Below are positions 15,313 through 53,367 of a stretch of DNA of 64,000 nucleotides, piece by piece; position 1 is the first letter of the stretch, and the number at the start of each line of letters is the position of its first letter. The stretch is from positions 850 to 64,849 of IMG/VR virus record IMGVR_UViG_3300035670_000017. One strand, written 5' to 3'. The position numbers were made by a program, and so were the translations under genes. The notes under the pieces are model-generated. The model was given only the letters and a program-made list of their open reading frames with translations. It was not told the DNA's origin and did no database searches. The stretch is from a virus. Lineage: Duplodnaviria; Heunggongvirae; Uroviricota; Caudoviricetes.

Positions 15313-18300
15313 TTACAGCACACGCCGATTATCAAAGGATGACGTATCGGCTTTGCGCGTTGGGTTACTGTTAGCGAAATTCCTCACGCTAGGTCCAGAG
15401 CTACCGCTACCGGAACCTTGCTCAGGAGACTTCATACCAGCCAGTCCCTGCGTATTTTCAGCGATGCGCTCCAGCAATGGAACGACCTTCTCAGTGATAC
15501 TAGTATCCATCGACGACAGATGCTTGATCTGATCCTCAGCAGATTTAGTAAACCGATCCAGTACTTGCGCAGTCAGCTGAATAGATGTATCCCGTGCCCC
15601 GTTGGTCGCGTAGCCTGGAGCACCAGGCACTGCTGCGGGAACCATGCTCCTAGCGGGTCGCACAGCAGTTGCGGTGTCGCCACTAGAAGTCAGCATAGCT
15701 ACAGGATTGTAGTCAGGTAGATCGTATCCAGCGATAGACTTTGGATCATACGTCTTAGGTGCAGTGGGGTTATAGGAAGCCTTCGAGAGTCCTCCGCCCA
15801 TGATCGAACCACTAGCAGCTGTCGCTGCGGGTGTATCCGAACCTCCACCCATGGCGATACCAAATTCATTAGCTTTCTTCGATACGCGTTTAGCCATGAA
15901 CTCCTTGACTTCTTGGACTGTTCGTGGTCGCGAACCATCGAAGAATATCTCGCGATTCTTTTCAGCTTGCTTAGGTGACAAGCGATAAGCCAAGTCTCCA
16001 GGGTTGGCGCTATTGAGACGATTAGCACCGCCTGCGCCCAGCAAATGCGTCATGTACCTGCTGGTAAAGTCTGCCCCACCCTTGTTACTCTTCATGTATT
16101 CATGGGCCAAGATGACGTTAGCACGAATATCGTCACGAGGAGTATTCGCATCCAATCCATACTTACCGCCGTGTTTACCGATTTGCTCTTTCCATGTGCC
16201 ATCGATGAAACCCATCAGACCGGTAGCTGAGGTCCCATTAGCCTTAGCCTTTGGATTCAAGCTACTTTCCATGGCAGCCAAAAGCATCATGTCATTGGGA
16301 TTGGCTCCGATCTCAGCTGAGACCCGTGCAATCTCTTTCTTGATGTCCTGGTGAGGACCGGATCCCAAAGATGCAGAGGCATCATTGTTACCAGAGAACT
16401 CCACATTACCGCCACTGGAGCGACCCATGGAAGAGAAGCCCTTGGAAGCACTTTCCTGGACAGCCTTAGCAGGGATAAGATCCTTGCCTTGAACCACAGG
16501 GGAGTTTAAGTTACTAGCAGGAGAAGGAGGAACACCTTGTGCATCCGACAACTTGACAACAGTTCCACCGGACTGTTCGTACAGAGCTTTCGCCAATGCA
16601 GGATTGCGTCCTCCCACAGGAGAGCGAGGAGTAGCGCCTGCTCCACCGCCACCTCGACCGAGAGACGCCAAAATGGCACTGTCGGCAAAGTTAGGATCAC
16701 GCTTGGCCTGGTCGATGGCTGTCTGAATGCCAGCTGGTTCAATGTGCCAGGTCTCACCGTAAATAGGACGTGTAAATCCATACTTACGCAACAGGCCCAG
16801 CTTCTCCAATTCGTTCAAGTCTTGAGTCGACAAGTCCGCAGCCAAACCGTATTCATGCAAAGATCCACCGGGACGAGCAGCGCGACCTGGGCCGTACTTA
16901 GCATACATTCTCTGTTGATCTTGGAACGAACGATAGGCGGACGTCACGTTCAATTGCTTGCCAGTAGCTTCGCCATATTCCTGAGCCATAGCGAGCAACT
17001 GTTGCTTCATGCGAGGATGCAGACCCTCGACATTCACACCGTTACCCAGCTTCAGATACTGCATACCACTTTCACCGGAAGCCAGTGGTCCATCAGCTAT
17101 CTTCAAGGAAGCAGCTCCCATGCTCAATGTCCCAGCGCCTTGATTGCTAGAAGGTTTACCCAATGCCGCTGGATCCTCTACATCACCATTGGCGATCGCT
17201 CGACCCAAATGAGAGTTGGGAGGAATGGCTCGGCGCTGAGGCGCCGTCATTGGGGCTTGAGTAGGATTGTTAACATCCGTCTTAGGTGCATTAGGAATAG
17301 CGCTCTTGACAGCTTCATTTGCCATCTTAGCTTCCTGAGGCGATGGCTTATTACCGCCAGCTTTAGCTTTCTTCGCTGCTTCGTCTTGGATCTTCTTACC
17401 AAGGGTTTGAATCTTAGCGTCAATGATCTTCTTGACTGGTTCAGGATTAGAGCTGAGAATATCCAAGCCCTTGAATGGACTTGTAGTATTTTCCCAGATG
17501 CTGCGAGGAATCTCAATCCCCGACAGATACTCCAGTTTCTCCGAATCAGTCAACGAATCGACCTTCTCCAAGGAAGCCTTGTTATTGACACGATACAATG
17601 CGGCGACGTGTTTTAGGAACACAGGCGAGAAACGATCCGTATACCACTTCGAGAACTTCGATGCAGTTTCAGTATCATCCGCAGCTATATCAAACAGCTC
17701 CGCAATCTCTTCAGGTTTAGCTGCGCGGCTATTGATAGTAGGGATACCGCCATTGAAAGCCAACTTACCATCGAGCAGATACTTCTCCAAGGCGATGACC
17801 TTGCTGTTGTATTGCTTCGTGGCATCGGTACCGTCTAGACCGTACTGCATCACACGGATGCGTTCCCATTCATCGATGTTATTGCGAGTCAGGTATTTAT
17901 AGAGCTTATAGCCACCATAACCGACACCAGCGATTGCTGCTGCACCGATTACGACAGGTGCACTCAAAGCGCTACCAATCAAAGAAGCTGCCCCAGAGAG
18001 CATACCTCCTGCTCCACCAGCAGCCAAGCCTACTACCTGTAGTGCTCTCACTGCGGTAGTACCCACCCGAGCAACGCCTGCTGCTCCTGGAAGCGTACCA
18101 GCCACACCCTTAATAGCGCTACCCACTCCAGCTACCGCAGTACCGACTCCAAGTATTCCTCGACCAGCCCACATAGCACCTTGACCTAATGCTTTTACAC
18201 CTGACCAGATACCCTTACCAGCTTTACTGATAAGTTTACCCGGACGACGAATACCGCCGAGTAGATCAGCCGCTCCACCGATCAAGCTGCTTGCCATTCC

Positions 18301-21300
18301 GGCAATGGAGCTAAGACCAGCAGTTGCCATGGCGATCATCTTCTCGATGGCATTATCAGCGGGAGAGTTACGAGAAGCCTTTTGCTCTGCTCCCTTCATG
18401 GAAGCTTCAACTGCGGCTTTCTTTCGCTCCTCATTAGCCATTTGGTTAGCTTGCGCGTTTTGCATGCGGTCAGCCGTACCACCGTCACGCTGCCCATCGC
18501 CGTCCGAGTCACCGAACATACCACGAATACGTTTGTAAGCGTTAGATGCTTTATTGCCGCCTAACTGAAGCAAGCGCATAGCGTGATCACGAGCGCTATA
18601 GGTATTAGCGCCTTGGTCAGCAGCACGCTCTTCGCGTTGCTGATTAGGATCCGCATTGGGGTTACTGAAGAAAGCGCTCAGCATATTAGCTGCGCCACCT
18701 ACTGCAGAACCAATAGCTCCGAGACCGGTACTCGCCATTGTGCCCAAACGGGAACCGCGCAAACGACCACCCCAACGTCCAAGGCGACCTCGGGCTCCAG
18801 GGAAGCGTTGACTGAACGCACCTCCTAGGGAACTAGCAGCTTGCTTACCTGCTCCGAACAATCCTCCTAGTGCGCCTACGATACCACCCATCCCGTTATT
18901 ACCCATGTAGTTACGTACTTGAGCTGGTTGCTGTGGTCCGACCATTTCAGGAGCAGGACCAAACATCTCGGGACCCATCTGAGCCATTGCATTTTGAGCA
19001 CCGCCGATGCCCTTGATCTTTTCAAACCAAGACTTCACTGATGCACCATAGAGCGGAGCGTTCATGAATGCACGAGCATTACGAACCCGACCATAGATGT
19101 TATCAAGGATCTCTTTAGGCTTATCAGCGGCGGCCAAATCACGCAGCTGCGTCAACAGCGATGCATTGACCTTATCGGGATTTTCCTCGATAGAGTCTGC
19201 GCCACTTGACGAAGGCGGCTTGTAGCTCGTTGTGGTGTCTGAATCAGTAATCGAACGACCCATGATCTCTTTGACCTTCTTGCCGGATTTACCGACAGCC
19301 AATAAGTCACGGATCTGGATCAAGATAGGCACCACACGAGGATCGGTTCCACCAATGCCAAAGCGGAAGTCACTGAACTTGTCGATCACTCGGTTCTTGA
19401 TACCCGTGGCCTTGTCACGAGCAGTACCCCACATCTTTTCAAGATTGGCGCTTTGAAGTTTATCACGTACATTGTTGTACATCCCCATTGCACCAGCAGC
19501 CAGATAGGAACCCGCAGCCTTCGCGGCGCCTAATGCATTCTGAGTGAATGTCTTGAGTACAGTTCCAGCGCGAGTCTTCAGTCCCTGAGCACGATCAGTG
19601 ATACTGAGTTTGACTCGATTCATCCCGTCAACGATATCACCCTTAGCACGCGCCACGTCGTCCATGGTCTTCAGGGCTTTACCTGTTGCTGAATCGAAGT
19701 AGTAACCAGCGGCTAGCAAAGAGCCAACAATCACCGGGCTTTCCATGCCTTCGATATACAAGTCATCCACAGTCTGGAAAATGTTCTTAACACTATCCAT
19801 GGCTGAGTCAAACGCACGCTTACCCATACCACCCAACTTAGGCATCTGGTTAAAGACGATATCGCTTCCGAACTCAATCGAACGAGATACAGCCTTCATA
19901 GTAGCTTGCAGGATATTATCCCGAGCATCCTTGATACCTTCTTTGTTGTTGGTCCAGAAGTTACTCATGGCCTGACCGGTTGCCTTAGCGGCTGACCCAG
20001 CACCTTTACCGAAAGACTTACCCCCCGCGATCGTAGTGTCGATCAAAGAAGTCAGCAGCGAGCCAAACGCAGCGCCGACACTGGTTGCCCCGGACATGAC
20101 AAACTGCTTGCCTTTGCTAGCGCCAGCAGCCAATCCGGACAGATCGACGTTACCGAACCCTGAGCCTTGCCCGGAAGCAATCAACTCAAGGATCTTTTTG
20201 GTATTCTCGTCAATGTTACGCAAGTGTTCAGTACCTGCCCCAGCACCCATTGATTCAACCATGTCCGCCAGCTTCTTGACAGCTGCCATGACGTGTCCGT
20301 TGAGATTAATCAAGTCAATCGTCTTGCCGCCAGGCGCAGCGTCGTCTCCGAAGTTTGCACGAACGTCTTGGGCCATAGGTCCAGTGTAATTCTGGCGCCC
20401 ATAACCCTGAGGACCTGCGTATTTAGTTCCTGGTTTGTAATCCCAGTCATAAATCTGCGTCTTCTTGAAAGCGTTTACAGACTTAGTAGGATCGATCTTA
20501 GACTTGGAGATGTTGTGCTTCAAGTTAATGTCAGACGCCACGGTGACGCTGTCATCAAAGAACTTGTAGTACTGGTCTTCGTTGACCTTCCAGTTACCAT
20601 CCTTGTCGCGGGTAATGATACCTTGCTGCTCAAGCAAGGGACCATAGCCTTCCCGGATAGCTTCCTGGATAGGGCCCATCAAGTTACCGATGCTGGACTT
20701 GACTTTAGCTGAGTTCGTGGCGAATTGGAATTGGTTCTTAGCAGTCTCCAAGGAGTCACCACTGAAGCGCTTATCCAAGATTCGCTCCACAATCTTCTTG
20801 ACCCGAGGATTGAGAGATTGGAACTCTTTAGTCTTTTTGAGTCGATCGCCAGTGAAGTCGAAGTCCTCATTGGAGCGAGAGAGTTTGTTGATGAACATCT
20901 GCACTTCACGAGCATCTGTCGCATCTAGCTTTTCAGAACCCACAAACGTATTGTAAGCTTCGCGTGATTCGTCGTTGTATGTCTTCATACCAGGCGCAGC
21001 TTCGCTGGCTGAACGCTTCAGACCAGAGACGATGTCACGAGCCAAGCTCGACTGGGTCTTGAATGATTCACTCTTGACGTCGTACATCAAAAGAGGAGTC
21101 TTATCGTCACCAGTACGCAATGCTGTCACTTCACGCAGAATGCGAGCCAGATAACCAGGAATGATTTCTGTCAAGCTGCGATTGACCTTCATCTGGGTAT
21201 GGAGTTTATTCTCACCCTCTTTACCGATAGAAGTGCTTCGGATCAACATGTCCGGCTTTTCACCAGCTAGCAAATCAAAGATGAATCCCAGGCCGTTTTG

Positions 21301-22557
21301 AGCCAAGTCTCCAAATTCAGAACCATCCGCTCCGAGCTTCTTATACCAGTTGGAGTTTCTCATCATGTCGATAAGTGCTCCAGGGTTAGTCGCATAACGC
21401 CCAGCTTGGAAAGAACGCTTCATGAACTTAGGATTCTTTTCAGCCCTTTTCTTGACTGTCTTAGAGATCCAATCAGAGATGAAGTCACCCAGGATACTGC
21501 CGCCAAACACACCAGCGGTGCGATAGCCAGAAGACTCCCGGCCTTCCAGCTCAGCCATCTCCTTATCCATATCACGGCTGTCAATCGCCATGTCCAATGC
21601 GTCATTGAGCATCTCCAGGGCATCTTTACTACCCATGATCTTCTCGCGACCCATCTTCATCAGACGCTGGCCTGCTAGACCCACTCGGCTCTTACTGCCG
21701 AACAAGCCATCATTGATACGACCGAATACCTGCTCCTTAGAGACTTGCTTCCAGCGCTGGGTGTTAGAAGTCTTTGCATATTCAGGCAACGAAGTGTTGT
21801 GCAGCAATGCATCTTGGAATGCCAAAGAGCGCTTTTGGAATTCAATCGAATGCTTGAGCATCGTCGCCGTTGCAGCGTATGTGCGGTACTGAAGTTCCAA
21901 AGACTTCTTCTTGTACGCAACATCAAAGCTCGACTGATAACGACGGATCGCATGGATGTCATTAGCGATGATACCAAGCATCTTCTGGTTAGCTAGAAAA
22001 CGCTTGTCCTCAACGCGAGACTGCACCATGTCGTAAGCCATCTTTTGCTTATGACGGTTTTCCTCGTTATTCTCCCGATCACCTTCCAAGTCAGCCATCA
22101 TTCGAGCGATGGTCTGGTCTTCGATGGATTCAGTATTGTAAGAAGAGGTGTTATCGATCTCATCGTCGAATTTATCTCGCAGATTACGAGCAAAATTCTT
22201 AGTACGTTGAGCCGAGTCAGGCACAAGTTGATCAAACTTGCGACTGATACTTCCCATCACCGGCTTGAGTTCCTTCGTAGCTTCATCGTATAGCTGGGTG
22301 GTGTCAGTAACGATTTGATCGATGCTGTCCCATGCCTGTCCAAAGCCATCAGGCAGTGCCTTACGAACCATGCCTCGGATATGAGACGAGTCAGTAAATT
22401 TGGTACGCAAAGAACTCTTAACACCATCAGCTATCTGGCTGATGGGTGTGCTCTTCTTGCTAGGTGGTTTTGGAATATCGAAGTCGTCATCAAAGTCGAA
22501 GTCGAGACTGGCATCCCAGGAATCTTTGCCAAAGTCTAATCTATCTTTCTTTGCCAT
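15313..22557 (-). CDS. Tape measure / structural peptidoglycan hydrolase (phiKZ gp181-like) with internal S74 chaperone, M15 peptidase and SLT domains
   Basis: 2414 aa, divergent from vRNAP beta-primeN as in phiKZ. SLT motif LAAMESSLNPKAK..SATGLMGFIDGTW; M15 motif TSAYRS..SLHEYGLAAD..ETWHIE; S74 motif SDINLKHNI..GPMAQD. Confidence 0.88.
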   Translation of the reverse strand: MAKKDRLDFGKDSWDASLDFDFDDDFDIPKPPSKKSTPISQIADGVKSSLRTKFTDSSHIRGMVRKALPDGFGQAWDSIDQIVTDTTQLYDEATKELKPVMGSISRKFDQLVPDSAQRTKNFARNLRDKFDDEIDNTSSYNTESIEDQTIARMMADLEGDRENNEENRHKQKMAYDMVQSRVEDKRFLANQKMLGIIANDIHAIRRYQSSFDVAYKKKSLELQYRTYAATATMLKHSIEFQKRSLAFQDALLHNTSLPEYAKTSNTQRWKQVSKEQVFGRINDGLFGSKSRVGLAGQRLMKMGREKIMGSKDALEMLNDALDMAIDSRDMDKEMAELEGRESSGYRTAGVFGGSILGDFISDWISKTVKKRAEKNPKFMKRSFQAGRYATNPGALIDMMRNSNWYKKLGADGSEFGDLAQNGLGFIFDLLAGEKPDMLIRSTSIGKEGENKLHTQMKVNRSLTEIIPGYLARILREVTALRTGDDKTPLLMYDVKSESFKTQSSLARDIVSGLKRSASEAAPGMKTYNDESREAYNTFVGSEKLDATDAREVQMFINKLSRSNEDFDFTGDRLKKTKEFQSLNPRVKKIVERILDKRFSGDSLETAKNQFQFATNSAKVKSSIGNLMGPIQEAIREGYGPLLEQQGIITRDKDGNWKVNEDQYYKFFDDSVTVASDINLKHNISKSKIDPTKSVNAFKKTQIYDWDYKPGTKYAGPQGYGRQNYTGPMAQDVRANFGDDAAPGGKTIDLINLNGHVMAAVKKLADMVESMGAGAGTEHLRNIDENTKKILELIASGQGSGFGNVDLSGLAAGASKGKQFVMSGATSVGAAFGSLLTSLIDTTIAGGKSFGKGAGSAAKATGQAMSNFWTNNKEGIKDARDNILQATMKAVSRSIEFGSDIVFNQMPKLGGMGKRAFDSAMDSVKNIFQTVDDLYIEGMESPVIVGSLLAAGYYFDSATGKALKTMDDVARAKGDIVDGMNRVKLSITDRAQGLKTRAGTVLKTFTQNALGAAKAAGSYLAAGAMGMYNNVRDKLQSANLEKMWGTARDKATGIKNRVIDKFSDFRFGIGGTDPRVVPILIQIRDLLAVGKSGKKVKEIMGRSITDSDTTTSYKPPSSSGADSIEENPDKVNASLLTQLRDLAAADKPKEILDNIYGRVRNARAFMNAPLYGASVKSWFEKIKGIGGAQNAMAQMGPEMFGPAPEMVGPQQPAQVRNYMGNNGMGGIVGALGGLFGAGKQAASSLGGAFSQRFPGARGRLGRWGGRLRGSRLGTMASTGLGAIGSAVGGAANMLSAFFSNPNADPNQQREERAADQGANTYSARDHAMRLLQLGGNKASNAYKRIRGMFGDSDGDGQRDGGTADRMQNAQANQMANEERKKAAVEASMKGAEQKASRNSPADNAIEKMIAMATAGLSSIAGMASSLIGGAADLLGGIRRPGKLISKAGKGIWSGVKALGQGAMWAGRGILGVGTAVAGVGSAIKGVAGTLPGAAGVARVGTTAVRALQVVGLAAGGAGGMLSGAASLIGSALSAPVVIGAAAIAGVGYGGYKLYKYLTRNNIDEWERIRVMQYGLDGTDATKQYNSKVIALEKYLLDGKLAFNGGIPTINSRAAKPEEIAELFDIAADDTETASKFSKWYTDRFSPVFLKHVAALYRVNNKASLEKVDSLTDSEKLEYLSGIEIPRSIWENTTSPFKGLDILSSNPEPVKKIIDAKIQTLGKKIQDEAAKKAKAGGNKPSPQEAKMANEAVKSAIPNAPKTDVNNPTQAPMTAPQRRAIPPNSHLGRAIANGDVEDPAALGKPSSNQGAGTLSMGAASLKIADGPLASGESGMQYLKLGNGVNVEGLHPRMKQQLLAMAQEYGEATGKQLNVTSAYRSFQDQQRMYAKYGPGRAARPGGSLHEYGLAADLSTQDLNELEKLGLLRKYGFTRPIYGETWHIEPAGIQTAIDQAKRDPNFADSAILASLGRGGGGAGATPRSPVGGRNPALAKALYEQSGGTVVKLSDAQGVPPSPASNLNSPVVQGKDLIPAKAVQESASKGFSSMGRSSGGNVEFSGNNDASASLGSGPHQDIKKEIARVSAEIGANPNDMMLLAAMESSLNPKAKANGTSATGLMGFIDGTWKEQIGKHGGKYGLDANTPRDDIRANVILAHEYMKSNKGGADFTSRYMTHLLGAGGANRLNSANPGDLAYRLSPKQAEKNREIFFDGSRPRTVQEVKEFMAKRVSKKANEFGIAMGGGSDTPAATAASGSIMGGGLSKASYNPTAPKTYDPKSIAGYDLPDYNPVAMLTSSGDTATAVRPARSMVPAAVPGAPGYATNGARDTSIQLTAQVLDRFTKSAEDQIKHLSSMDTSITEKVVPLLERIAENTQGLAGMKSPEQGSGSGSSGPSVRNFANSNPTRKADTSSFDNRRVL

Positions 22558-22648
22558 AGAGGCTCCTTCAAGTACTCAATTTCATACCGTTTTTATAATG
22601 GTACATGGATTATTAAATGCATTTTTCTAATGCTCAAAGGATCTACCC

Positions 22649-24262
22649 ATGCCACGTAAGCTTGACCCATTTAAAATAGACCTTCTGATTCCCACTCGCG
22701 CAGATCTGCAAGGTGTGAAGAAAGTTGTTGTCATGGACATCATGGAAGGTTTCACTAAGAACTTCCACCCTGAAGGTTTGTTCTCCGCTGAGATCTTCGG
22801 TAAGGTCGGTGAAGAGCGCCGCTCCAAGACGTTCGGCTACATTGACCTGAATCTCAAAATCTTTCACCCACTGATCTATAAGGTCATCATTGATCTGAAA
22901 GCTCTGTACGGTGAAATCATGGCCAGCAAGACCTATGCAGTGTTTGATGAGGAAGCTAAAGACTTTGTCAAAAGCAACATCGCTGAAGGTGAGACTGGTT
23001 ACGAATTCTTTCTGAAACACTTCAACAAGATCAAGTTCGAAAGAACTAACTCCATCAGCCGCAAGGTGTATGTGCAGTTTGTGGAGAAATACCGAGAGAA
23101 CCCATTCATCGAACAATTGATCGTGATGCCCGCTGGCCTTCGTGACTACATGGTCGACGAAGATGGCAAACCGTCTGAAGATGAGATCAACGGCATGTAT
23201 CGCTCGATCATGGCTGTTAGCTCGTTGATGCAAAACGTCAACACAGGCAAGAACCCAGAGATGGTGGATGCTTCGCGTGCCAATTTGCAAGTGAAGGTCT
23301 ATGAGCTGTATCGCTACATCATGGGTCTGCTCTTGGGTAAAGGCAAACTTATCCAAGGATCGTTCCTGTCTCGCAAGGTATCCAACACTACACGTAACGT
23401 GATCTCCAGCTACATCCCTAACGTCAGGCGCTTCGGGGATCCTACTTCGGTGGGAGCCAGTGACACCGTGATGGGCCTGTACCAGTATCTGCGGGACATC
23501 ATGCCTTTGGTGGTGTTCCATCTGAAGAACAAGTACATGTACAAAGTCTTCTCTGGCACCAACACCGACATGACTGTAGTTGATCCTAAGACCCTAAAGA
23601 AAAAACAAGTGGGTCTGGACTCCAAGGCATACAACACCTGGATGACTTATGACGGTATCGAAAAGATCTGTGATAACTTCTCCCAGGAAAACATGCGTCA
23701 TTACCCTGTGATGATCGGACCTAACTATTTGGGTCTGGTGTACAAGGGTGACGATATGACGTTCAAGTTCATTCAGGACATTGACGAAGTTCCTGAAGGT
23801 CGTGACAAGAAGTCTGTCACTCCGATCACCATGGCAGAGTTGCTTTACATGGCGGTCTATGAAGAAGCCAATGAGTCCTATGGCTGGAGTACCCGCTACC
23901 CGGTGACTCAGTTCGGTTCGACCTTCCCTGGTACTGTCTACCTGAAATCCACAAGCGATTCCGAAGCTCGCTATGAGCTGGATGACATGTGGGAGAAAAT
24001 GCCGATCCTGGCGAAGTCCTTTCCGGTCAACGGCAGTGAGTTCTTCAACTCCATGAGTGTTCCTGTCAGTCGAGTACCTCGTGCAGGTGCTGACTTCGAC
24101 GGCGACATGATGAACCATTATTGCGTTTTGACCACTGAAGCAAAACAAGAAGTCAAGAGGCTGTTGGGTTCCAAGGAACACTACATGACCATTGACGGAC
24201 AGCCTACTTTCAGTCTGGACAACGATTACATCAAACTGGCTTTGGCATATTTGACAAACTAA
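22649..24262 (+). CDS. Virion RNA polymerase beta-prime N-terminal subunit (phiKZ gp180-like)
   Basis: Catalytic GADFDGD motif; EGLFSAEIFG; PAGLRD; GKLIQGSFLSRKV. Confidence 0.95.
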   Translation: MPRKLDPFKIDLLIPTRADLQGVKKVVVMDIMEGFTKNFHPEGLFSAEIFGKVGEERRSKTFGYIDLNLKIFHPLIYKVIIDLKALYGEIMASKTYAVFDEEAKDFVKSNIAEGETGYEFFLKHFNKIKFERTNSISRKVYVQFVEKYRENPFIEQLIVMPAGLRDYMVDEDGKPSEDEINGMYRSIMAVSSLMQNVNTGKNPEMVDASRANLQVKVYELYRYIMGLLLGKGKLIQGSFLSRKVSNTTRNVISSYIPNVRRFGDPTSVGASDTVMGLYQYLRDIMPLVVFHLKNKYMYKVFSGTNTDMTVVDPKTLKKKQVGLDSKAYNTWMTYDGIEKICDNFSQENMRHYPVMIGPNYLGLVYKGDDMTFKFIQDIDEVPEGRDKKSVTPITMAELLYMAVYEEANESYGWSTRYPVTQFGSTFPGTVYLKSTSDSEARYELDDMWEKMPILAKSFPVNGSEFFNSMSVPVSRVPRAGADFDGDMMNHYCVLTTEAKQEVKRLLGSKEHYMTIDGQPTFSLDNDYIKLALAYLTN

Positions 24263-24311: not shown

Positions 24312-27300
24312 ATGAGTACAACTTCTCAACAGTTTCCCGAGTTTTATAAAAAGCACGGGATCTTGAGACTTGACAGTCTGACTGAACCAGATCCAACGCT
24401 GGTTAAACGACTTCCCGTGGAAAGCTGTCTGCACATCCTGGGTACCGATGAGAATCCGGAATTGGATGTATCCGATCCACTGCTCAAGGGTTACAGTGAG
24501 AAGGTCCGGTACATGGACATTGTCCATCATGACCCTGCTCACAACCATGGTACCTACAGTCCCAAGAGCATCGTTCAGGACCAAGCGTTGTTCAAACGCA
24601 AGAATCGAAACTTCGAGCTGGTACGGGAACTCAAGAACACGAAGACTACGACCAGTAAGCAGTTGCTGGTTTTCAATTACGGTTACATGGACTTGATGTA
24701 CCGGTATCCAGAGGACAAGATCTCTAGCTATTACCGGATCGAAGATAAACTGTACGCAGTGACTTCGATTATCAAGCGCTCCCTAGAGATCGAGCCTCGT
24801 AACCACTTCGTCATCTTGCCTATTCCTGCGCAACTTATCGCAAAGAGTATCTTGGATCGCTATGCTCAAGAAACTCCTCCTAAGTTAGCCAGTCTATTTC
24901 CAGGGGAGGATGAGCAGCTGTTGCGTCAGATGTGGAACTTCATCAATCCTCAGTTGCGGCCAACTGGTATATGGGGAGAGATGACTCCTCAGCAATTGCG
25001 TAAGATCAATCTGGTTTTCAAGAGCTATGACGGTAAGCTCACTGTCTTGAACTTGGGATACTTGCAAAGCTGGGTACGAGGCTCTGAGAACCTGACACTG
25101 ATGAATTCGGTACTGGTCAAGGGCTTCGAAGATGTACAGAAGTACTATCTGCGCTCGATGATGACTTTGCGAGAGATCGACTTGCGCGGCGCAGCACTTG
25201 CTGCTCAGTTGGCTGCCGAGGAAGAGCAAAAGCGATTACTGCAAGAAGCAGATGACGCACTGGAGACAGGGGAGGTGTCCGAGAAGGACGACCGATTTCT
25301 CCAAGACGTCGAACAAACCGAAGCAGCGCTACGTATTCAAGGTGAACTCTCCGAAGCTGAAGAAGATCCTTCAGTCCTTCTCGACGTAAAGAAAACCGGT
25401 ACACCAGGTCAGACTGGGACACTGGGTGAAGTGGAGGCTGAAACGCTCGCTATCAATGAAGAAGACGTTGATCGGGATATCCAGGCTCTGGAGGTGATTG
25501 AAGCCAATCGAGCCAAGTCTCTGGAGCAAGTCAAAGCTAACGAGAACGCCGATACATACTCTTCAGACGTACCAGCTACGCGTGAAGAGATCATGCAAGA
25601 GTTGTTCAAGGAACAAACCCCTGAGCAAACAGTTTTGTCTAAGCTAGAAGCACTGGCTCAAGAAGGTCGTGTGACTAGTCCTGAGTTCCGAAAGAAGTCT
25701 CAACTGGCAAAACAGTCAGGGGCTAATAAGGATCCTTACGGTAGCGGTAAGACAATCCAGCAAGCTTCTTTGGTTCGCGTTGAAGACCTGGTGATTAAGG
25801 AGCAGGAAACTGTTCTGAACGTACCTGCTACTGTTATTGATAAATCGATGGCGAAGTCGACGCTTCCAATCATCGGTCGAAAATACAATAACACTGTTCT
25901 GAAGAAAGACATCTTGGCTTGCGTACAAGGCGTACAAAAGTCTGGTGTGATCATCAAGAACCACCAGGTCGATCGCATCACAACTGCACTGGGTGATTAT
26001 GACGTACACACACTGGAGCTGGTACCGATTGACGGTCAGCCTTCGATCATTCGTCAGCGTATCCCTGTGGTCAATGAAGACGGCACATTCACAGCCAAGG
26101 GTGTCAAGTACCGGCTGCGCTCTCAGTTCTTCGACGTACCTATCCGTAAAATCGGAGAACACCGAGTAGGCTTGTCTTCGTACTACGGAAAGACGTTTGT
26201 TGATCGAGCGACTAAGAAGGCGAATTCATCGCTGGCCTATGTCATCGCACGTTTGAACAAGGCGACGATCCAGCCTGATGAATGGTTGCGTGATGTCTCT
26301 CCTGGTATGGTCTTCGATAACTACTTCGAAGCTCCTTATATCTACTCAGGTCTGTCGGAGCACTTCCAGTCCTTCCGTGCTGGAAACATGAACTTCGACT
26401 TCAACTGCAAGGGTTGGAGAACGACTATTGAGCCAGGTATCTTGGCTCGACTGGAGAACAACGGCCGTGTGGTCTGTGGCTCTACTGACAAGCAAGAATA
26501 CATCGTGGTGGATAAGGACGGAATGTTCTATAAGGTCTCGGAGAAGAAAGCCGAAGAGATCGGAAACATCTACAACATCCTCAAGCTCGATGAGTCTTTG
26601 GCTCCTGTTGACTACGCTGAGATCAGTGTCTACTCTAAGGGCGTGCCTGTGGGTATGTTCTTGGCACAGCAGATCGGTTTCCGTAAACTGGTCAAGATGC
26701 TGGGAGCTAAACACCGCATTGTGGAAGGACGCAAGCAAAAGGATTTGCAGCCGCATGAATATGTGGTTCAGTTCCGTGACTTCGCATTCATCTTTGATCG
26801 CCGTGAGGCTGTCAACTCCTTGATCCTTGGTGGTTTCATCCACTATGAAAAGGATATCAAGATGTTCGATGCAAAGATGTTTGATACACGCGACGTCTAT
26901 CTGCGTATCTTGGAAGCCAAGGGACTTAACAGTTACTTCACTGGCGAGATGGCTAATATGCGAGATCTGTTCATTGACCCGATCACTGAACGTATCCTCA
27001 AGGAGATGGGTGAGCCCACTAACTTTAACCAGTTAGTGATTCGTAGCTGTGAGTTGCTCCAGACTTACTACTACCCTGACTCCCAAGACGCCAACTATCA
27101 GCGTATTCGTGGCTACGATCGCTTTGCTGGATTCTTCTACAAGGAACTGGCTAATGCTATTCGTCAGTACAAGAACAAGAACCGTACAGGCCGAGCCAAG
27201 GTCGATGCATCGCCTTATGCTCTGTGGACTACGTTGACTCGCGACTCCGCAGTCAAGCACGCAGAAGATATCAATCCTGTTCAAGACGTTAAGATCACTC

Positions 27301-28679
27301 AAGAAGCAGTGACTTATGTCGGTGAAGGCGGTCGCGGTAAGGAATCGATGAACCGGGCTTCTCGTGCGTATACCAAGAGTAACCTGGGTATGCTTTCGGA
27401 AGCGTCTGTGGACTCGTCTGACGTGGGTATCAATGCGTTCTTGTCAGCAGACCCTGGGTTTGCTAACTTGGACGGTATGCCCGCTCGTAACCGTCAGCAC
27501 AAGGCAACCAATCTGTTGTCGACTTCCGCATTACTGGCACCGTTCTCGACATACGACGACCAAAAACGTATTGGCTTTATCAGTATCCAGCAAGCACACA
27601 CCATTGCAACTGACGGCTACCAGCCTTCTCCTATCCGCACAGGGTATGAGTCTGTGATCGGTATGCGCACCAGCGGCATGTTTGCACAAGTGGCAAAGAT
27701 GGATGGCGTGGTTCGAAGTGTGACTGATACTGGCGTGATCGTGGAGTATTCAGATGGCACAAAGCAAGGCTACGAAGTGGGAACACTTTACGGCAAGGCT
27801 GAAGGTTCTGTCTATCCGCATAACGTCAAGGCCGTGGTGAAGGTGGGTCAACGTCTGAAGAAAGACGACTACATCACATACAACACCAAGTTCTTTACCC
27901 CTGATCCGATTCTGCCTGGTGGCATCGTTTACAAGGGCGGCTTGATGGCTTTGGCTGTGTTGGTGGAAACTGCACGCACTCACGAAGACTCCTCGGTGAT
28001 TTCTCGAAATCTATCGCGTCGTCTCAGAGCTACTACTACAAAGGTCAAGACATACACTGTCAACTTCAAACAGAACGTACTGGACGTGGTCAAGATTGGT
28101 CAGAAGGTCAAGCCTGAAGATATCTTGATGACGATTGAGGATGAGATCACCGCGATGGATGACAGCTTCAAGGATAGCTCCTTGCAGATCTTGTCTGAGC
28201 GCAGCAAGAACTCCCCTCGCAGTAGCTACATCGGTACTGTCTCCAATATCGAGGTGCTCTATCACGGTGATTTGTCTGACATGTCAGCGAGCTTGAAGTC
28301 TTTGGCTACCAAGAGCGATAAGCTCAAGGCGGAAAAGGCTAAGAGTGTCGGCAAGGAAGCGGCAAGCGGATTTGTCAACAGTGACTTGTCCGTGAACGGA
28401 ACTCCTTTGGCTGTGAACAAAGCAGTGATTCGTGTCTACATCGACGTCGAAGATGATCCGGCTACTGGAGACAAGATCGTCGTTGGTAACCAGTTGAAAT
28501 CCGTTATCGGAGAGGTGATGGATTATACACTGCGCACAGAGTCCGGTGAAGTAGTTGATTTGCAATTCGGTGCGAAGTCTTTCGCTGCTCGTATTGTGAA
28601 CTCCCTGATTATGTTCGGGGTAAGAGCTGCTGCACTGAAGGGTCTGGAGAAAGCTGCAGATAAACTGTACCGCCAATAA
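24312..28679 (+). CDS. Virion RNA polymerase beta N-terminal subunit (phiKZ gp178-like)
   Basis: 1455 aa; DDQKRIGFISIQQAH, HEDSSVIS and GDKIVVGNQLKSVI beta motifs; adjacent to beta-primeN. Confidence 0.95.
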   Translation: MSTTSQQFPEFYKKHGILRLDSLTEPDPTLVKRLPVESCLHILGTDENPELDVSDPLLKGYSEKVRYMDIVHHDPAHNHGTYSPKSIVQDQALFKRKNRNFELVRELKNTKTTTSKQLLVFNYGYMDLMYRYPEDKISSYYRIEDKLYAVTSIIKRSLEIEPRNHFVILPIPAQLIAKSILDRYAQETPPKLASLFPGEDEQLLRQMWNFINPQLRPTGIWGEMTPQQLRKINLVFKSYDGKLTVLNLGYLQSWVRGSENLTLMNSVLVKGFEDVQKYYLRSMMTLREIDLRGAALAAQLAAEEEQKRLLQEADDALETGEVSEKDDRFLQDVEQTEAALRIQGELSEAEEDPSVLLDVKKTGTPGQTGTLGEVEAETLAINEEDVDRDIQALEVIEANRAKSLEQVKANENADTYSSDVPATREEIMQELFKEQTPEQTVLSKLEALAQEGRVTSPEFRKKSQLAKQSGANKDPYGSGKTIQQASLVRVEDLVIKEQETVLNVPATVIDKSMAKSTLPIIGRKYNNTVLKKDILACVQGVQKSGVIIKNHQVDRITTALGDYDVHTLELVPIDGQPSIIRQRIPVVNEDGTFTAKGVKYRLRSQFFDVPIRKIGEHRVGLSSYYGKTFVDRATKKANSSLAYVIARLNKATIQPDEWLRDVSPGMVFDNYFEAPYIYSGLSEHFQSFRAGNMNFDFNCKGWRTTIEPGILARLENNGRVVCGSTDKQEYIVVDKDGMFYKVSEKKAEEIGNIYNILKLDESLAPVDYAEISVYSKGVPVGMFLAQQIGFRKLVKMLGAKHRIVEGRKQKDLQPHEYVVQFRDFAFIFDRREAVNSLILGGFIHYEKDIKMFDAKMFDTRDVYLRILEAKGLNSYFTGEMANMRDLFIDPITERILKEMGEPTNFNQLVIRSCELLQTYYYPDSQDANYQRIRGYDRFAGFFYKELANAIRQYKNKNRTGRAKVDASPYALWTTLTRDSAVKHAEDINPVQDVKITQEAVTYVGEGGRGKESMNRASRAYTKSNLGMLSEASVDSSDVGINAFLSADPGFANLDGMPARNRQHKATNLLSTSALLAPFSTYDDQKRIGFISIQQAHTIATDGYQPSPIRTGYESVIGMRTSGMFAQVAKMDGVVRSVTDTGVIVEYSDGTKQGYEVGTLYGKAEGSVYPHNVKAVVKVGQRLKKDDYITYNTKFFTPDPILPGGIVYKGGLMALAVLVETARTHEDSSVISRNLSRRLRATTTKVKTYTVNFKQNVLDVVKIGQKVKPEDILMTIEDEITAMDDSFKDSSLQILSERSKNSPRSSYIGTVSNIEVLYHGDLSDMSASLKSLATKSDKLKAEKAKSVGKEAASGFVNSDLSVNGTPLAVNKAVIRVYIDVEDDPATGDKIVVGNQLKSVIGEVMDYTLRTESGEVVDLQFGAKSFAARIVNSLIMFGVRAAALKGLEKAADKLYRQ

Positions 28680-31245: not shown

Positions 31246-32055
31246 ATGTCTTCCAATTTAACATTCCAGGCAGCGGTGCTTCGCGCTGGCAAACAAGGTA
31301 TCATCAAACCTGATCCAGATGGATATTACACCCAATGTATCGGGGGCCTTGATATCGAGAATGCAGCCGGTGTCACCTATGCATCTGAAAAAGCCAAGAA
31401 TCTGTTCTTGGAAAGCTCTTCTTTGATGCGCCGCATCCGTGACCGGGCATTGCGCGGTGAAGTGGGTCACCCACGACGTGGTCCTGAACACGCAAACTTC
31501 GACGCATGGATGCATCGACTCAATGACATCTTCGAACCAAACGTCTGCGTGTATTGGTCTGAAGTTAGTTTGGATGAAAATTATGGACGTAACAATCCGT
31601 ATCTGAATCGTCCAAACATGATCGGTATCATGGCGCGCTATCGTCCAGGCGGCGCACATGGTCATATCCTCGAAAAGGATTTGGCTGACCCCATGGCCAA
31701 TGTCTCGTTCTCGATTCGGGCATTCTCTATTCCTCGCACCACAATGGGTAAGCAGTTCTATGATCTGCAAAGCATTGTGACTTGGGACTATGTGAATGAA
31801 CCAGGCATCGCGCAAGCACAAAAGCTTTTGTCGGCCACTATGGAATCCCGTTACGAGGAAGCCATTGCAATGACAGCTGCTCGCCGGGTCATCGACAATG
31901 CCAAGCGTATGACACAGGCTGCAGACCCGATGGTGGCTATGGCCACTATGGAGTCTAAGGCTCACCAGAACCTGATGCAATTGGATCGGGTACTGACTAT
32001 CGACACTGGCATCTCCAAACCTGTTTCCATCTACGTGAACTGGGCAAATAAATAA
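31246..32055 (+). CDS. Prohead maturation protease (phiKZ gp175-like)
   Basis: Catalytic His in RGEVGHP, Ser in FSIRA, and TWDYVNEPGI. Confidence 0.93.
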   Translation: MSSNLTFQAAVLRAGKQGIIKPDPDGYYTQCIGGLDIENAAGVTYASEKAKNLFLESSSLMRRIRDRALRGEVGHPRRGPEHANFDAWMHRLNDIFEPNVCVYWSEVSLDENYGRNNPYLNRPNMIGIMARYRPGGAHGHILEKDLADPMANVSFSIRAFSIPRTTMGKQFYDLQSIVTWDYVNEPGIAQAQKLLSATMESRYEEAIAMTAARRVIDNAKRMTQAADPMVAMATMESKAHQNLMQLDRVLTIDTGISKPVSIYVNWANK

Positions 32056-39194: not shown

Positions 39195-41261
39195 TTACTC
39201 AGCGTTTTGCAGACGCTCGATACGGTCCGATTGGACGTACAGAGTTTGAACCGTCTTCATGCCAGGGGCGCCGAAGCCAATTGGCAGAGTCCAGCTGAAG
39301 TTGCGCATTTCATCCAGCTCTGTCACCACAGCCTTCGGAACGATCACGAAGCGATCGTCGAAGATACCCTTGCAGGCATTAGCCACGCTGTTATTGACAC
39401 GCTGCACCAGCTGCAGATTCGTCAGATCCGAGCGACCGGTGAACAGACGCCATGTGCGGTGACCAATCTTGTTCAATTGGCACACACCCATCACGTTGAT
39501 CATGCTGGTCAGCACAGAGGTATCGTCAGGATAGACGGTACGGTATGCAGGGATGAAGTAGCTGCGACGGTCAAAGCGTTGGATCCAGTTCAGACCCACA
39601 TCCCAGAAACGGTTACGCACCGATTCAGGCACAAACACCATGTTGATGTCTGTCAGCTCTTCGATCAGGTTACCAGGATTACCGTCAGGACGAGCACTGC
39701 CCTTCCAGCGACCATCCGAAGCACCCATGTAGCGAGCCATCTTGATCAAGATCTCGTACGTAGCAGGCACACGGTACTGAGTGTTACGGATAACACCCGA
39801 GCAGCCCATGATCAGCGCACGCGTAGCGGGAGTACCAAACCACAGCGATTCAGGATAGCTCAGCACACGAGCGCGCAGCGACACAGCCGAAGAGTGCTCT
39901 TCGCTTTCTGTCAATGGACGCGCACCGAAGACGTGAGTGCCCAATACCAGGAAGGTATCGTGACGTTGAGAGATGAAGCTTGGCAGATCCATCTTGGTTT
40001 CCATAGGGAAACCGCTATCGTAGAAGATCGACTGGATGTGGTAAGCCAGATCCATCACGGGGTCCTTGCGATCACGGTAACGCTTGATGTAAGCGGAGAC
40101 CATCTCGGCAAAGATCTCATCGTTCATGGTGCCATCAGAGCCTCCAGCAGCAGTCACGTCCGTGTAACGAGAGAATGTCAGAGCATCGCTGTCGTTCGAG
40201 AAGATGAAGCTGTGGTAAGGAACACCAAAGGTGCTTTGGCCGGTGATCACGTTGAACAGACCGCTATCTTCAGGAGAGTCACCGAAGTCACTCCACTGAT
40301 CGATGAAGGGGATTTCCGCTTCATGGAACGCAGCCAGCAGGGTATCCAGGTAGTTCTGGTAAATATAGAACTTACCAAAAGGAGGATACTCGATGGGGTA
40401 GCGAGGATCAGTCAGATTGCTGTAAGCGCTCTTGACACGATCACCGATGAACAGGTCTTGATTGGACACAGGGTCCTTCACACCAGGCTTGAACGTCACA
40501 CCCACCTGCTGCTCGCCGAAGATGGTCTTGACCACGCTAGCTGCGCTAGTAGGGGTCTCGCGGTCCACGATCGAGAAGTAATAAGGGAACGCCTTGTAGG
40601 TGTTCATCATGTTGTATGGAACGTCTTCCATGTTCGAATTGGGAGTCCAGAAACGAACACCCAGACGGTTGCCATAAGCGCCTTGGCTATCCACGACGAA
40701 GTCGAAGATAGGGTAACGCTCAGAGACCGTACCAGTGGTGGGATCAATTTGATTGCCTGCCACCATCGTGTAGCCACCGACTGCATCTGCATCGCCGGTG
40801 TTCTTGGAAGTCACCACCCACTTGACCTTGTAACCATCAGCAGTACCGATGATCTGAGGATCACCCAGAGCGTCAGTCCAGATGGAGCCATCGGCGTTAC
40901 GACGATACTGGTCGACCTTGGTCTTCAGTACGTCCAGCCACAGCGTCAAGTTGGCCTTAGGGCCTGCGTCTTCAGGAATCAGACGCTTGTAGACACAAGC
41001 GTTAGCTTCTTGATTGGCGCGGTTTGCAAAGATAGTTGCGTGGTTGTAATACGCGCTACCTGCGGAGAAAGTGTTAGAGCCATAGATGTTCTCACGCTCG
41101 GCACCAGCCAAGAGCAGTTCATCCGTGGAGCCTTTTTCTGCCCAAATCAGAAAAATTGGAAGATGTTGTGGAGCAGCTTCCGACTGGGTAGGTATTTGCT
41201 GAGTCGAGAGATCCTCAATACCCAGGTCTTCGACCATTGGCGCGCCATTGACGATTGCCAT
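39195..41261 (-). CDS. Contractile tail sheath protein (phiKZ gp29-like)
   Basis: 688 aa; N-terminal IVNGAP..GIEDLS..PQHLPIF..WAEKG; size and gene order. Confidence 0.9.
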   Translation of the reverse strand: MAIVNGAPMVEDLGIEDLSTQQIPTQSEAAPQHLPIFLIWAEKGSTDELLLAGAERENIYGSNTFSAGSAYYNHATIFANRANQEANACVYKRLIPEDAGPKANLTLWLDVLKTKVDQYRRNADGSIWTDALGDPQIIGTADGYKVKWVVTSKNTGDADAVGGYTMVAGNQIDPTTGTVSERYPIFDFVVDSQGAYGNRLGVRFWTPNSNMEDVPYNMMNTYKAFPYYFSIVDRETPTSAASVVKTIFGEQQVGVTFKPGVKDPVSNQDLFIGDRVKSAYSNLTDPRYPIEYPPFGKFYIYQNYLDTLLAAFHEAEIPFIDQWSDFGDSPEDSGLFNVITGQSTFGVPYHSFIFSNDSDALTFSRYTDVTAAGGSDGTMNDEIFAEMVSAYIKRYRDRKDPVMDLAYHIQSIFYDSGFPMETKMDLPSFISQRHDTFLVLGTHVFGARPLTESEEHSSAVSLRARVLSYPESLWFGTPATRALIMGCSGVIRNTQYRVPATYEILIKMARYMGASDGRWKGSARPDGNPGNLIEELTDINMVFVPESVRNRFWDVGLNWIQRFDRRSYFIPAYRTVYPDDTSVLTSMINVMGVCQLNKIGHRTWRLFTGRSDLTNLQLVQRVNNSVANACKGIFDDRFVIVPKAVVTELDEMRNFSWTLPIGFGAPGMKTVQTLYVQSDRIERLQNAE

Positions 41262-41311
41262 ATTCGATCCTTTCTTGCGAAATAAAATACTTCGATGGAG
41301 AAGTTTATAAA

Positions 41312-51219: not shown

Positions 51220-53367
51220 TTATCGCCTAAACGATTTCTTACGCTGTTGGCGTAGTTTCATGATCAGATCGTCGACTGCAAGGATATCGCGTTCGTTTTC
51301 ACTGAGCATGGATTCATTATGACGAAGTTTATGCTCTAGTCGCAACGCTATCAGAGGATCCTTTTCCTCTTCCAGCTCACGCACTAGGTCATCGATCTCT
51401 TGTTTGATACGGTCTTGCAAGTACTTGTCGTATAGGCTATCTTCCGTCAACTCTTCGTCAAGCGACTTGTTATTAGCCAATACGTCCTTGGGATCAATTC
51501 CGTAGTGGATCAGGTTCTTGGCACTAGTCAGGAACCAGTAAGTCAACAGCCACGCCACCACCGAGTCATCCTTGCCGTCTTTAGGGTGATCGATACGCCC
51601 GTCCCGAACAACCAGGCTCAAGATCTGACTGATGGTTACTGGGTCATGGACAAAGTCTCCAGTGTATTTCACTGCAGCCATAAACACAGATCCATACAAA
51701 CCACTGCGAGAGAACTTACCAGACGCAGAGGTCTTGAAGCCAAAATAGCGGCGATAAGCCGTGACAAACTCCTTAGGCACCTTACCGTTGGTTACGATGT
51801 CTTTGTAGCGTTGCTTGAACTCAGCAGCTTCATCCACTACCAAGTTAAAGATACGCCTGAACGGATCGATGTTGTGTGCTACCAATTCCAAAAGGACGTG
51901 GTCAATGATGGATGAGCCGTTGAGTTTGTTTTCAGGAATCCAGGTAATGTTAGGATACTTGATCAACATATGCGAAATGAACTTAGCCATCACGATAGTG
52001 TTACTGTCATTGATGTTCGCAGCAGCGACCACCTTGCCAGTCTTTACATCCCGGAAGTTCAAAGTCGAGTCATCTCGACCAATATTCTCCGATGGGTCAG
52101 TTGACATGATGACCTTATTGAGAGTCATGAATGTATCGACCTTATTCAAAGGCATTTGCCAACGCAGGATATAAGGCCAAGGATCACACTTTTGACCATA
52201 GTAAACCATCTCAGAGGCACGGATACGCCGAGTGTCTTCCACTGACAAGGGAGAGGCTTGAGAGCCGTCAGTCCAGACGTTACCATAGTCACGGTCAGCT
52301 GCTTCACCTTCAGACTTAGCAGCAGCCATGGCGCGGCGCAGCCAGTCATCGGACTTACCCAACTGGCGGTGGTTGAATGCGCAATGCACTTCAGGACTCA
52401 CAGGAGCTTGACCGTCGGCCCGTGCGGGCATAGCGTGCAAGATTGTCTTTTCCAGATCAGCGCGATCTTTGCAGTCAAGGAAGGCTTCAGTCCAGTCGGC
52501 TGCTTCAGTCACCAGCTTATAAGCGTAGGCGCCATCAGGGTCATCTTTCTTGCCAGCGGTAGTCGAGAAGATAGTACCGTAGAAGATACCGTCTTTCTCA
52601 GCTTGCGTACGTGCATCGTTACCACCGGCGAGCATGGCTGGAATAGAGATGGAGGCATAGCGCAAGAATGCAAATTCGTCAACCAGGTACGAGGGCGCAG
52701 TAAAACCACGACCCACGTTGTTGGCGAACTTTTCCGATGTCGCAGGGATGTGGCCCTTGAAACGATTCTTCGTTGCACCGAAGTGAATCTCTTCTGTGTT
52801 ATTGACGTCACCCTTCTTGTGACCAGACAAGAACCAAGGCAAGTAAGCATCCAATTCACGAAGACGCTCCATATTCTGCTTGCGCAGACCATCATCCTTA
52901 GTCAGCAAGTTCACTAGCTTCTTATAGTAGTGAAGGTTGCACAGGTACAGGGTCAACTGGTCCATGGTCAGAGATTTACCAGTCTGACGAATCTGGATCA
53001 GGTAAGACGTGATGCTATTGAAGAACAACCAGTACACCGACATGTTACCACGGTTAGCCAAGATAGGCTTTGGGTTCTCCAGCGTGTGACCAGGAGCCTT
53101 GGCGATCTCGCGGAAATAGTAAAACGGATTGACTACGCATTCTTCACGGATCATCAGCATCTCATTCATTGTCAACCCTGGGTCATTGGGGTCAATGAAC
53201 TTCAAATCCGGATTGTGCAGCTGTAAGCACCAGGCGTTATTCTTAACACCCATCTTAGCTAACAGATTGGCATACTCGATGAACGAAGTATTGAGTGTGT
53301 TATCATGGATGATCGCGGTGGACTTACTCCAGTCCTGATCAAACAAAATGATTTTATGTTTCGACAT
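51220..53367 (-). CDS. terL: Terminase large subunit (phiKZ gp25-like)
   Basis: Walker A RQTGKS, Walker B LVDE, nuclease DPSENIGRD and DHPKDGKDD; 715 aa. Confidence 0.93.
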   Translation of the reverse strand: MSKHKIILFDQDWSKSTAIIHDNTLNTSFIEYANLLAKMGVKNNAWCLQLHNPDLKFIDPNDPGLTMNEMLMIREECVVNPFYYFREIAKAPGHTLENPKPILANRGNMSVYWLFFNSITSYLIQIRQTGKSLTMDQLTLYLCNLHYYKKLVNLLTKDDGLRKQNMERLRELDAYLPWFLSGHKKGDVNNTEEIHFGATKNRFKGHIPATSEKFANNVGRGFTAPSYLVDEFAFLRYASISIPAMLAGGNDARTQAEKDGIFYGTIFSTTAGKKDDPDGAYAYKLVTEAADWTEAFLDCKDRADLEKTILHAMPARADGQAPVSPEVHCAFNHRQLGKSDDWLRRAMAAAKSEGEAADRDYGNVWTDGSQASPLSVEDTRRIRASEMVYYGQKCDPWPYILRWQMPLNKVDTFMTLNKVIMSTDPSENIGRDDSTLNFRDVKTGKVVAAANINDSNTIVMAKFISHMLIKYPNITWIPENKLNGSSIIDHVLLELVAHNIDPFRRIFNLVVDEAAEFKQRYKDIVTNGKVPKEFVTAYRRYFGFKTSASGKFSRSGLYGSVFMAAVKYTGDFVHDPVTISQILSLVVRDGRIDHPKDGKDDSVVAWLLTYWFLTSAKNLIHYGIDPKDVLANNKSLDEELTEDSLYDKYLQDRIKQEIDDLVRELEEEKDPLIALRLEHKLRHNESMLSENERDILAVDDLIMKLRQQRKKSFRR

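Follow-up and report, generated by a model that had tools for sequence, protein, structure and literature searches.

We analysed a 64,000-nucleotide stretch of the virus record IMGVR_UViG_3300035670_000017 (Caudoviricetes; positions 850 to 64,849 of that record), here called the window, and focused on the gene for a giant tail protein of 2414 residues on its minus strand. Inside this protein lies a Peptidase_S74 domain, of the kind also called an intramolecular chaperone autocleavage (ICA) domain. It does not occupy the extreme C-terminus, the usual site of S74 domains, and instead starts at residue 675 of 2414, with the same arrangement in giant homologues. The features at the locus, in window coordinates, are as follows.

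15313-22557, minus strand: giant tail protein gene, an open reading frame (ORF) of 2414 residues; homologue of phiKZ gp181, SPN3US gp239 and 201phi2-1 gp276
20536-22557, minus strand: N-terminal module (residues 1-674), the best-conserved region in the family and the predicted released product
20176-20535, minus strand: Peptidase_S74 ICA domain and the long helix at its C-terminal end (residues 675 to ~794)
20350-20535, minus strand: Pfam PF13884 match (residues 675-736)
20533-20535, minus strand: Ser675 codon; predicted to be the nucleophile and, after an A674-S675 cut, the new N-terminus; invariant in homologues and aligned with residue 1 of 3gud and with the MyRF Ser
20518-20520, minus strand: Lys680 codon; predicted to act as general base in the Ser/Lys dyad; invariant in homologues and equivalent to MyRF K592 and endoNF K916

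PF13884 matched the whole protein at 27.1 bits (E 5.3e-6, cut-off 22) and the isolated fragment at 31.8 bits (E 1.7e-7). A six-frame search of the complete 167.7-kb record gave 32.9 bits (E 1.2e-8), and this was the sole S74 match there. A first-pass annotation, made from the sequence of the window and its translated open reading frames without database searches, had placed an S74-type domain inside the 2414-residue protein and had named a PF13884 search as one way to check it; the match at residues 675-736, above the cut-off, bears this out. The text it had quoted, SDINLKHNI...IYDWDYK...YTGPMAQDVRANFG...IDLINLNGHVMAAVKKLADMVE, was located at residues 675-768 (window positions 20254-20535). 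It had also read the Ser and Lys of the motif as intact, and both are encoded, as window positions 20518-20541 (minus strand) translate to VASDINLK. Ser675 and Lys680 are spaced five residues apart, the same spacing as S911/K916 of endoNF and S587/K592 of MyRF, with the equivalence of these residues taken from a profile alignment and from the literature (PMC8326128). For comparison with structures, we built a family profile from residues 630-810 and 15 homologues (a 16-sequence alignment). Against the PDB, this profile matched the C-terminal domain of a tail fibre (8jov, E 6e-4), the GA-1 neck appendage chaperone (3gud, E 1.6e-3), whose chain begins exactly at the aligned Ser, and the MyRF ICA (7dc3, E 0.01). 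Residues 675 to ~794 are confirmed as a genuine Peptidase_S74 ICA domain, situated between a helical N-terminal module of 674 residues and the remainder of the protein.

Structure prediction points to an intertwined trimer

An AlphaFold2 (AF2) monomer model of residues 630-810 (mean pLDDT 75) shows a beta/alpha core followed by a 45-residue C-terminal helix, which covers approximately local residues 120-165. Upstream of the domain, the same model has a helix (631-644), a beta hairpin (648-658) and a second helix (660-670), with no beta-helix stalk predicted. When the model was searched with Foldseek, the top three rows were all chains of the MyRF ICA structure 7dc3 (probability 1.00, E 1.6e-3, TM-score by target 0.52-0.57), at a sequence identity of ~16%, and the next rows were 3gud and 3gw6. 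Moderate scores of this kind are expected, since the model held only one chain of what would be an intertwined trimer.

The first-pass annotation had suggested that the domain could trimerise its host protein. The homotrimer model agrees as a prediction, reaching an ipSAE of 0.72 against 0.01 for the best control, with at least 73% of contacts in common between runs and a partner pLDDT of at least 68. Of proteins solved as one-chain pairs, 20 of 30 reach the mark applied to such models, compared with 1 of 23 single-chain ones. As similar trimers have already been solved, the pass is to be read as a likeness that may come from the predictor's memory. The predicted interface takes in the long helix (local residues 120-164) and the cleavage strand (residues 672-688), where the putative scissile bond and the dyad are located. 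The S74 domain of the giant protein is accordingly modelled, and here predicted, as a homotrimer with a C-terminal triple coiled coil.

The domain and its motif recur across giant homologues

To see how widely the domain occurs, residues 660-800 were compared by phmmer with 1.84 billion cluster representatives, which gave 429 matches at E <= 1e-3. Among the best 150 of these, ~110 are proteins of 1900-3650 residues that carry the domain at about residue 650-1190. With a hidden Markov model of the domain, S74 was found in 147 of the 212 giant proteins collected, always directly after the same end of the N-terminal module (N module), and S-D-x3-K is kept in every one of these 147 carriers. This also upholds the earlier reading of an intact Ser and Lys, and a conservation of S, D and K in 147/147 proteins excludes a chance match. 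The survey of gp181 homologues that had been proposed thus finds the insertion to be widespread, with phiKZ lacking it.

In the 16-sequence alignment, the invariant columns are S675, D676, K680, W705, Y707, the GPMAQ motif (725-729) and several Gly and Pro positions, and the motif columns stay invariant across sequences that are 31-45% identical. By profile alignment, W705 and Y707 correspond to Y615 and Y617 of MyRF. Judged from these alignments, the pattern is what would be expected from purifying selection on catalysis, and a mere oligomerisation module would not need it. Separately, twelve of the 147 carriers have 50-90 residues inserted behind the catalytic strand with the dyad kept (among them P0045, P0071, P0083, P0095, P0097, P0125, P0131, P0168, P0179 and P0181); the S74 domain seems to tolerate a long loop between the SDxxxK strand and the domain body.

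A search with the N module only, and so unbiased for S74, found the domain in 57 of the 120 best relatives. Together with the window protein and three cultured-phage proteins, these formed a tree of 124 rows, 58 of them carriers. In this tree (FastTree), presence of S74 is strongly clustered, requiring 6 changes against a mean of 41 after shuffling, and in one clade 47/49 rows carry the domain. Carriers fall on both sides of the midpoint root, and they also occur at the base of the other half and in a nested clade of six. A tree of the S74 domain itself (86 columns), run to test for a single origin, spoke neither for nor against one. With the N-module tree rooted at its midpoint, ancestral presence followed by losses and a gain with later spread through recombination are both compatible with these trees. 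One protein nested in the carrier clade, P0183 (2371 residues, from a 257-kb contig), has a proline-rich linker, GPIPGPMPGPAPAGGPMPPPPPGAPP, exactly at the domain's site, and looks like a clean loss.

Relatives without the domain

No PF13884 match was found at E <= 1 in the genomes of phiKZ, 201phi2-1 and RSF1. The BLAST alignment of the window protein to 201phi2-1 gp276 runs from residue 21 to residue 672 and ends there, and in a multiple alignment the S74-less proteins share the preceding motif 'G-I-I-x-x-x-(D)G-...-I-N' and then continue into a Pro/Gly-rich linker. A profile-profile comparison (hhalign) of the region after the N module in 59 S74-less homologues gave a probability of 0.2% for a relic of the domain. 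The phiKZ sequence 'GPMYQ', which MAFFT aligned to 'GPMAQ', was considered as such a relic and discarded as a chance alignment considering this same value.

We also searched a collection of 50,697 phage records by tblastn with three S74 regions. This returned no jumbo phage and only phages of ~40-63 kb, including the ~60-kb phages Parlo, PEp14, LASTA and CF418P1. For Parlo and CF418P1 the gene maps were checked, and in both S74 ends a protein of ~400 residues, the classical arrangement. Outside the giant proteins, the closest sequence relatives are likewise the C-terminal S74 domains of proteins of ~350-420 residues.

Modules on either side of the domain

The N module was modelled by AF2 as all-alpha (mean pLDDT 71); one helix spans 108 residues (147-254), and residues 450-670 form a confidently predicted helical domain. 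In a fold search of this model, no PDB entry scored better than E 0.35, which is uninformative. At its very start (residues 1-48, window positions 22415-22557, minus strand) is an acidic aromatic motif, LDFDFDDDFDIP, in which D-L-D-F-x-D-F-D is conserved across the whole gp181 family, S74-less members included. The motif is predicted to be disordered (pLDDT < 50) and might serve as a peptide on which an assembly partner docks.

From Ser675 to the end of the protein there are 1740 residues, ~1620 of which follow the S74 domain itself. This C-terminal part contains glycine-rich hydrophobic segments of a kind typical of tape measures, and two wall hydrolase domains.

16807-17022, minus strand: VanY / M15-type peptidase domain (residues 1846-1917; PF02557, E 3.5e-8, 33.7 bits, cut-off 25)
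16075-16305, minus strand: SLT lytic transglycosylase domain (residues 2085-2161; PF01464, 24.6 bits, cut-off 21.3; phrog_4067, E 6e-30)

Both lie C-terminal of the S74 domain and within the 1740-residue part, as the first-pass annotation had stated. Across the gp181 family, this wall-hydrolase end is modular. Some members replace SLT (PF01464) by a class-I chitinase/GH19 domain (PF00182), a glucosaminidase (PF01832) or a tail lysozyme (PF18013). Not all members have VanY (PF02557); its pairing with SLT, as seen in the giant protein here, is common in the S74-bearing clade.

Several candidates for a natural split of the gene were examined and rejected. The short hits of the representative search were either proteins of ~350-420 residues with a C-terminal S74 domain and an unrelated N part, or fragments truncated by the end of a contig. 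P0100 (951 residues) is interrupted at L013:5200-5500 (a JGI contig), ~160 residues after its S74 domain; the break falls within a conserved 'D-I-Y' motif, the coding sequence runs on in another frame, and the protein comes from a single 6.6-kb contig, so that the frameshift is most likely an assembly indel. A search for shorter homologues gave nothing at E <= 1e-8 among 8000 candidates scored, which is a weak negative.

Gene family and genomic setting

The 2414-residue protein matched phrog_3201 at E 3e-185 in the comparison with PHROGs. By tblastn it found gp181-type genes in 291 phage records, reaching the SPN3US-like, phiKZ and 201phi2-1 genes, whereas a megablast of the gene against the phage records gave no match. 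The N module, the central part and the C-terminal SLT are all homologous to the corresponding parts of the phiKZ, SPN3US and 201phi2-1 proteins, and the synteny of phiKZ is kept at the giant gene, with a divergent RNA polymerase (RNAP) beta subunit gene and a downstream gp182-like gene. The record, of 167.7 kb, has a CheckV completeness estimate of 61%, and the window contains hallmarks of a phiKZ-like jumbo phage of the nucleus-forming type, namely a split RNAP, PhuZ, an S80-type protease and the large terminase.

22649-24262, plus strand: RNAP beta subunit gene (phrog_2986, E 2e-184)
24312-28679: RNAP beta subunit, other split part (hallmark gene)
31246-32055, plus strand: S80-type head maturation protease (PF20034, E 8e-57; phrog_3014)
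51220-53367: large terminase (hallmark gene)
59919-60911: PhuZ tubulin (hallmark gene)

The head maturation protease, the other protease of the virion, is encoded ~9 kb from the giant gene. Two minus-strand ORFs (22643-23521 and 23594-24181) were rejected as genes, as they have no family match and overlap the plus-strand RNAP gene at 22649-24262; they are regarded as shadow ORFs. Elsewhere in the window, two ORFs of ~690 codons on opposite strands overlap almost fully (39195-41261, minus strand, and 39207-41285, plus strand), and the plus-strand member has no PHROG match at E <= 1e-5.

The gp181 family has been described as the virion peptidoglycan hydrolase of the tail (PMC5380687). SPN3US gp239 has been named the tail tape measure and was placed in the tail by mass spectrometry (PMC10052503), and phiKZ orf181 is described as a 'likely' tape measure and as essential (bioRxiv 10.1101/2025.11.23.690004). 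Judged by the sequence comparisons above, the giant protein is a homologue of a protein accepted as the tape measure. Among curated models, no Pfam tape-measure family matched it at E <= 1; phrog_1533 gave a weak match (residues 1456-1578, E 1e-4), and the PHROGs label for its family is 'tail fiber protein'. As no curated tape-measure model matches, we use 'tape measure' as the current name of the protein and not as its established function.

Proposed self-cleavage and its alternatives

Considering the analogy with MyRF, we think it probable that the giant protein splits itself by a trimerisation-coupled cut of the A674-S675 bond, carried out by Ser675 and Lys680. Three nascent chains would associate through the beta 'cutter' of the domain and its C-terminal three-helix coiled coil, and this association would fix the threefold register of the protein, which is expected to be trimeric in the tail lumen. 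Trimerisation would position Ser675 and Lys680, aided by the invariant W705 and Y707, and the A674-S675 bond would then be cut. One product would be a trimeric helical piece of residues 1-674. The other, also trimeric, would comprise residues 675-2414, keep the ICA domain as an N-terminal clamp, as in the membrane fragment of MyRF, and carry the glycine-rich hydrophobic segments together with the VanY and SLT wall hydrolases. This is how the two pieces may be expected to fare after the cut. Phage tails and heads are built separately (as restated in PMC10052503), so a self-contained cut would not need the head protease encoded at 31246-32055, and cleavage would be independent of it.

In MyRF, the trimer forms through the triple coiled coil, the cleavage strand lies within a 'cable cutter', the cut falls at P586-S587, and mutation of Y615/Y617 abolishes correct cleavage (PMC8326128). 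Cleavage of MyRF requires ICA trimerisation alone, whereas that of endoNF requires Arg897 of the folded beta-helix (PMC8326128). We liken the proposed mechanism to MyRF more than to the endosialidase because the part upstream of the cut is not predicted to be a triple beta-helix.

Some observations weigh against self-cleavage. The intramolecular chaperone domains of phages normally need a folded triple beta-helix upstream (PMC8326128), and here the 45 upstream residues are predicted as helix-hairpin-helix in the monomer model. The Foldseek E of 1.6e-3 just misses the tool's line of 1e-3, with moderate TM-scores for the monomer. No gene naturally split at the predicted cut site was found among the homologue hits. 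The cultured relatives phiKZ, 201phi2-1 and RSF1 function without an S74 domain, so the domain is not essential to the family. The source phage is uncultured, and its giant protein is a translation of the gene sequence.

Part of this would be equally expected if the S74 domain were a permanent trimerisation clamp and the protein stayed in one piece in the virion. The predicted trimer does not require cleavage, the triple beta-helix that triggers cleavage in phage spikes (PMC8326128) is not predicted upstream, and the S74-less relatives are presumably single chains. However, a clamp needs neither nucleophile nor base, and yet Ser, Asp and Lys are present in 147/147 very diverged homologues, and the aromatic pair equivalent to that of MyRF (W705/Y707) is invariant in the 16-sequence alignment. 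The missing upstream fold also counts for less, considering that MyRF cleaves on ICA trimerisation alone (PMC8326128). We therefore regard a clamp without cleavage as unlikely. The domain could alternatively be a classical chaperone that only folds and trimerises the 674-residue N module. This module would then be a tail or ejected component in its own right, joined to the true tape measure/lysin through an accident of gene order, and the cut would undo the fusion. Such chaperone domains do act on the part N-terminal to them (PMC8326128), the nearest S74 domains of cultured phages end proteins of ~400 residues in phages of ~60 kb, and the N module is an autonomous, well-conserved unit. Against this, every relative, whether or not it carries S74, has the N module joined to the C-terminal part, including phiKZ, 201phi2-1 and RSF1, with hits to the N and C parts in 124 and 128 of 170 sequences, respectively; the N module was not found as a gene of its own among the homologue hits, and the sole apparent split (P0100) looks like a frameshift. 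This makes such a fused but separate component very unlikely. Finally, the modest Pfam score (27 bits), along with precomputed hits that were 'faint' in some relatives, might suggest a chance resemblance or the decayed, non-functional remnant of a fibre gene. This is difficult to reconcile with an E of 1.2e-8 at the scale of the whole record, with 429 phmmer relatives among 1.84 billion representatives, with motif columns that are invariant at 31-45% identity, and with the agreement of the fold and trimer predictions. Barring an error in all of the alignments, the conservation data rule it out.

Significance

A literature search turned up no account of a tape measure or a gp181-family protein with an S74/ICA domain, in line with the first-pass annotation, which had known of none for a tape measure. 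In the jumbo-phage survey of Iyer et al. 2021, S74 comes up solely in connection with 'group 2' phages and fibre-type proteins (PMC7824862). Neither the domain nor its chemistry is new, and its internal use is known from MyRF; the novelty lies in the host protein and in where the domain sits within this phage tail-lumen protein, throughout a large clade of uncultured phages. In nucleus-forming jumbo phages, the gp181-type gene is the largest and is essential, and little is known of how its product assembles and acts in the tail and upon ejection. If self-cleavage occurs as proposed, trimer-gated cutting would set the threefold register of a protein of ~2400 residues and would yield two mature products without the head protease. 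It would also widen the known roles of S74/ICA domains: beyond serving receptor-binding proteins as a C-terminal chaperone that is discarded, they would act as an internal switch for the processing of a tail-lumen protein, an arrangement known until now from the eukaryotic MyRF. Because the domain is widespread in nature while all of the cultured model phages lack it, proteomic or structural work on phiKZ or SPN3US would have missed it.

More tentatively, and with less confidence than we would need to favour it, the internal ICA may be old and possibly ancestral in the gp181 family. The tape measure of a large uncultured phiKZ-like branch would then be a self-splitting polyprotein, the freed 674-residue trimer an unrecognised component of the tail lumen or of the ejected material, and the lineages of phiKZ, 201phi2-1, SPN3US and RSF1 would have lost the module. 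The branch would in this case provide the first MyRF-style internal use of the domain in a prokaryotic virus.

Comparison with known systems

Processing of a tail-length or tail-tip protein has precedents in phages: lambda gpH (to H*) and T5 pb2 are reportedly cut by proteolysis during assembly. To our knowledge, these cuts lie near the C-terminus and are not made by a built-in S74 domain.

Within the phage's own family, the gp181/gp239/gp276 proteins of the Chimalliviridae share the family and the gene neighbourhood of the giant protein, and differ from it in that the S74 domain, and mostly the VanY match, are absent. The intramolecular chaperone domains of spikes and fibres (K1F endosialidase 3gw6, GA-1 3gud, 8jov) share the PF13884 family and the S-D-x3-K...G-x-x-A-Q motifs. 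Unlike the domain in the giant protein, they end their proteins, are discarded after the cut, and come after the triple beta-helix or a comparable trimeric stalk in a receptor-binding protein; in the giant protein, the predicted cut site is followed by 1740 residues, and the host protein is not a fibre.

The closest parallel is the ICA of MyRF (7dc3; PMC3742443, PMC8326128). In both, the domain is internal to a long protein and has a Ser/Lys dyad in S-x4-K spacing, an aromatic pair beside the cut site and a C-terminal triple coiled coil. MyRF is a eukaryotic transcription factor of the ER membrane with an upstream beta-helical stalk, whereas the upstream part of the phage protein is predicted to be helical and its cleavage is a prediction. 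Once MyRF is cut, its N-terminal fragment is released as a trimer and its C-terminal fragment retains the domain, and the giant tail protein would likewise keep its domain on the C-terminal piece.

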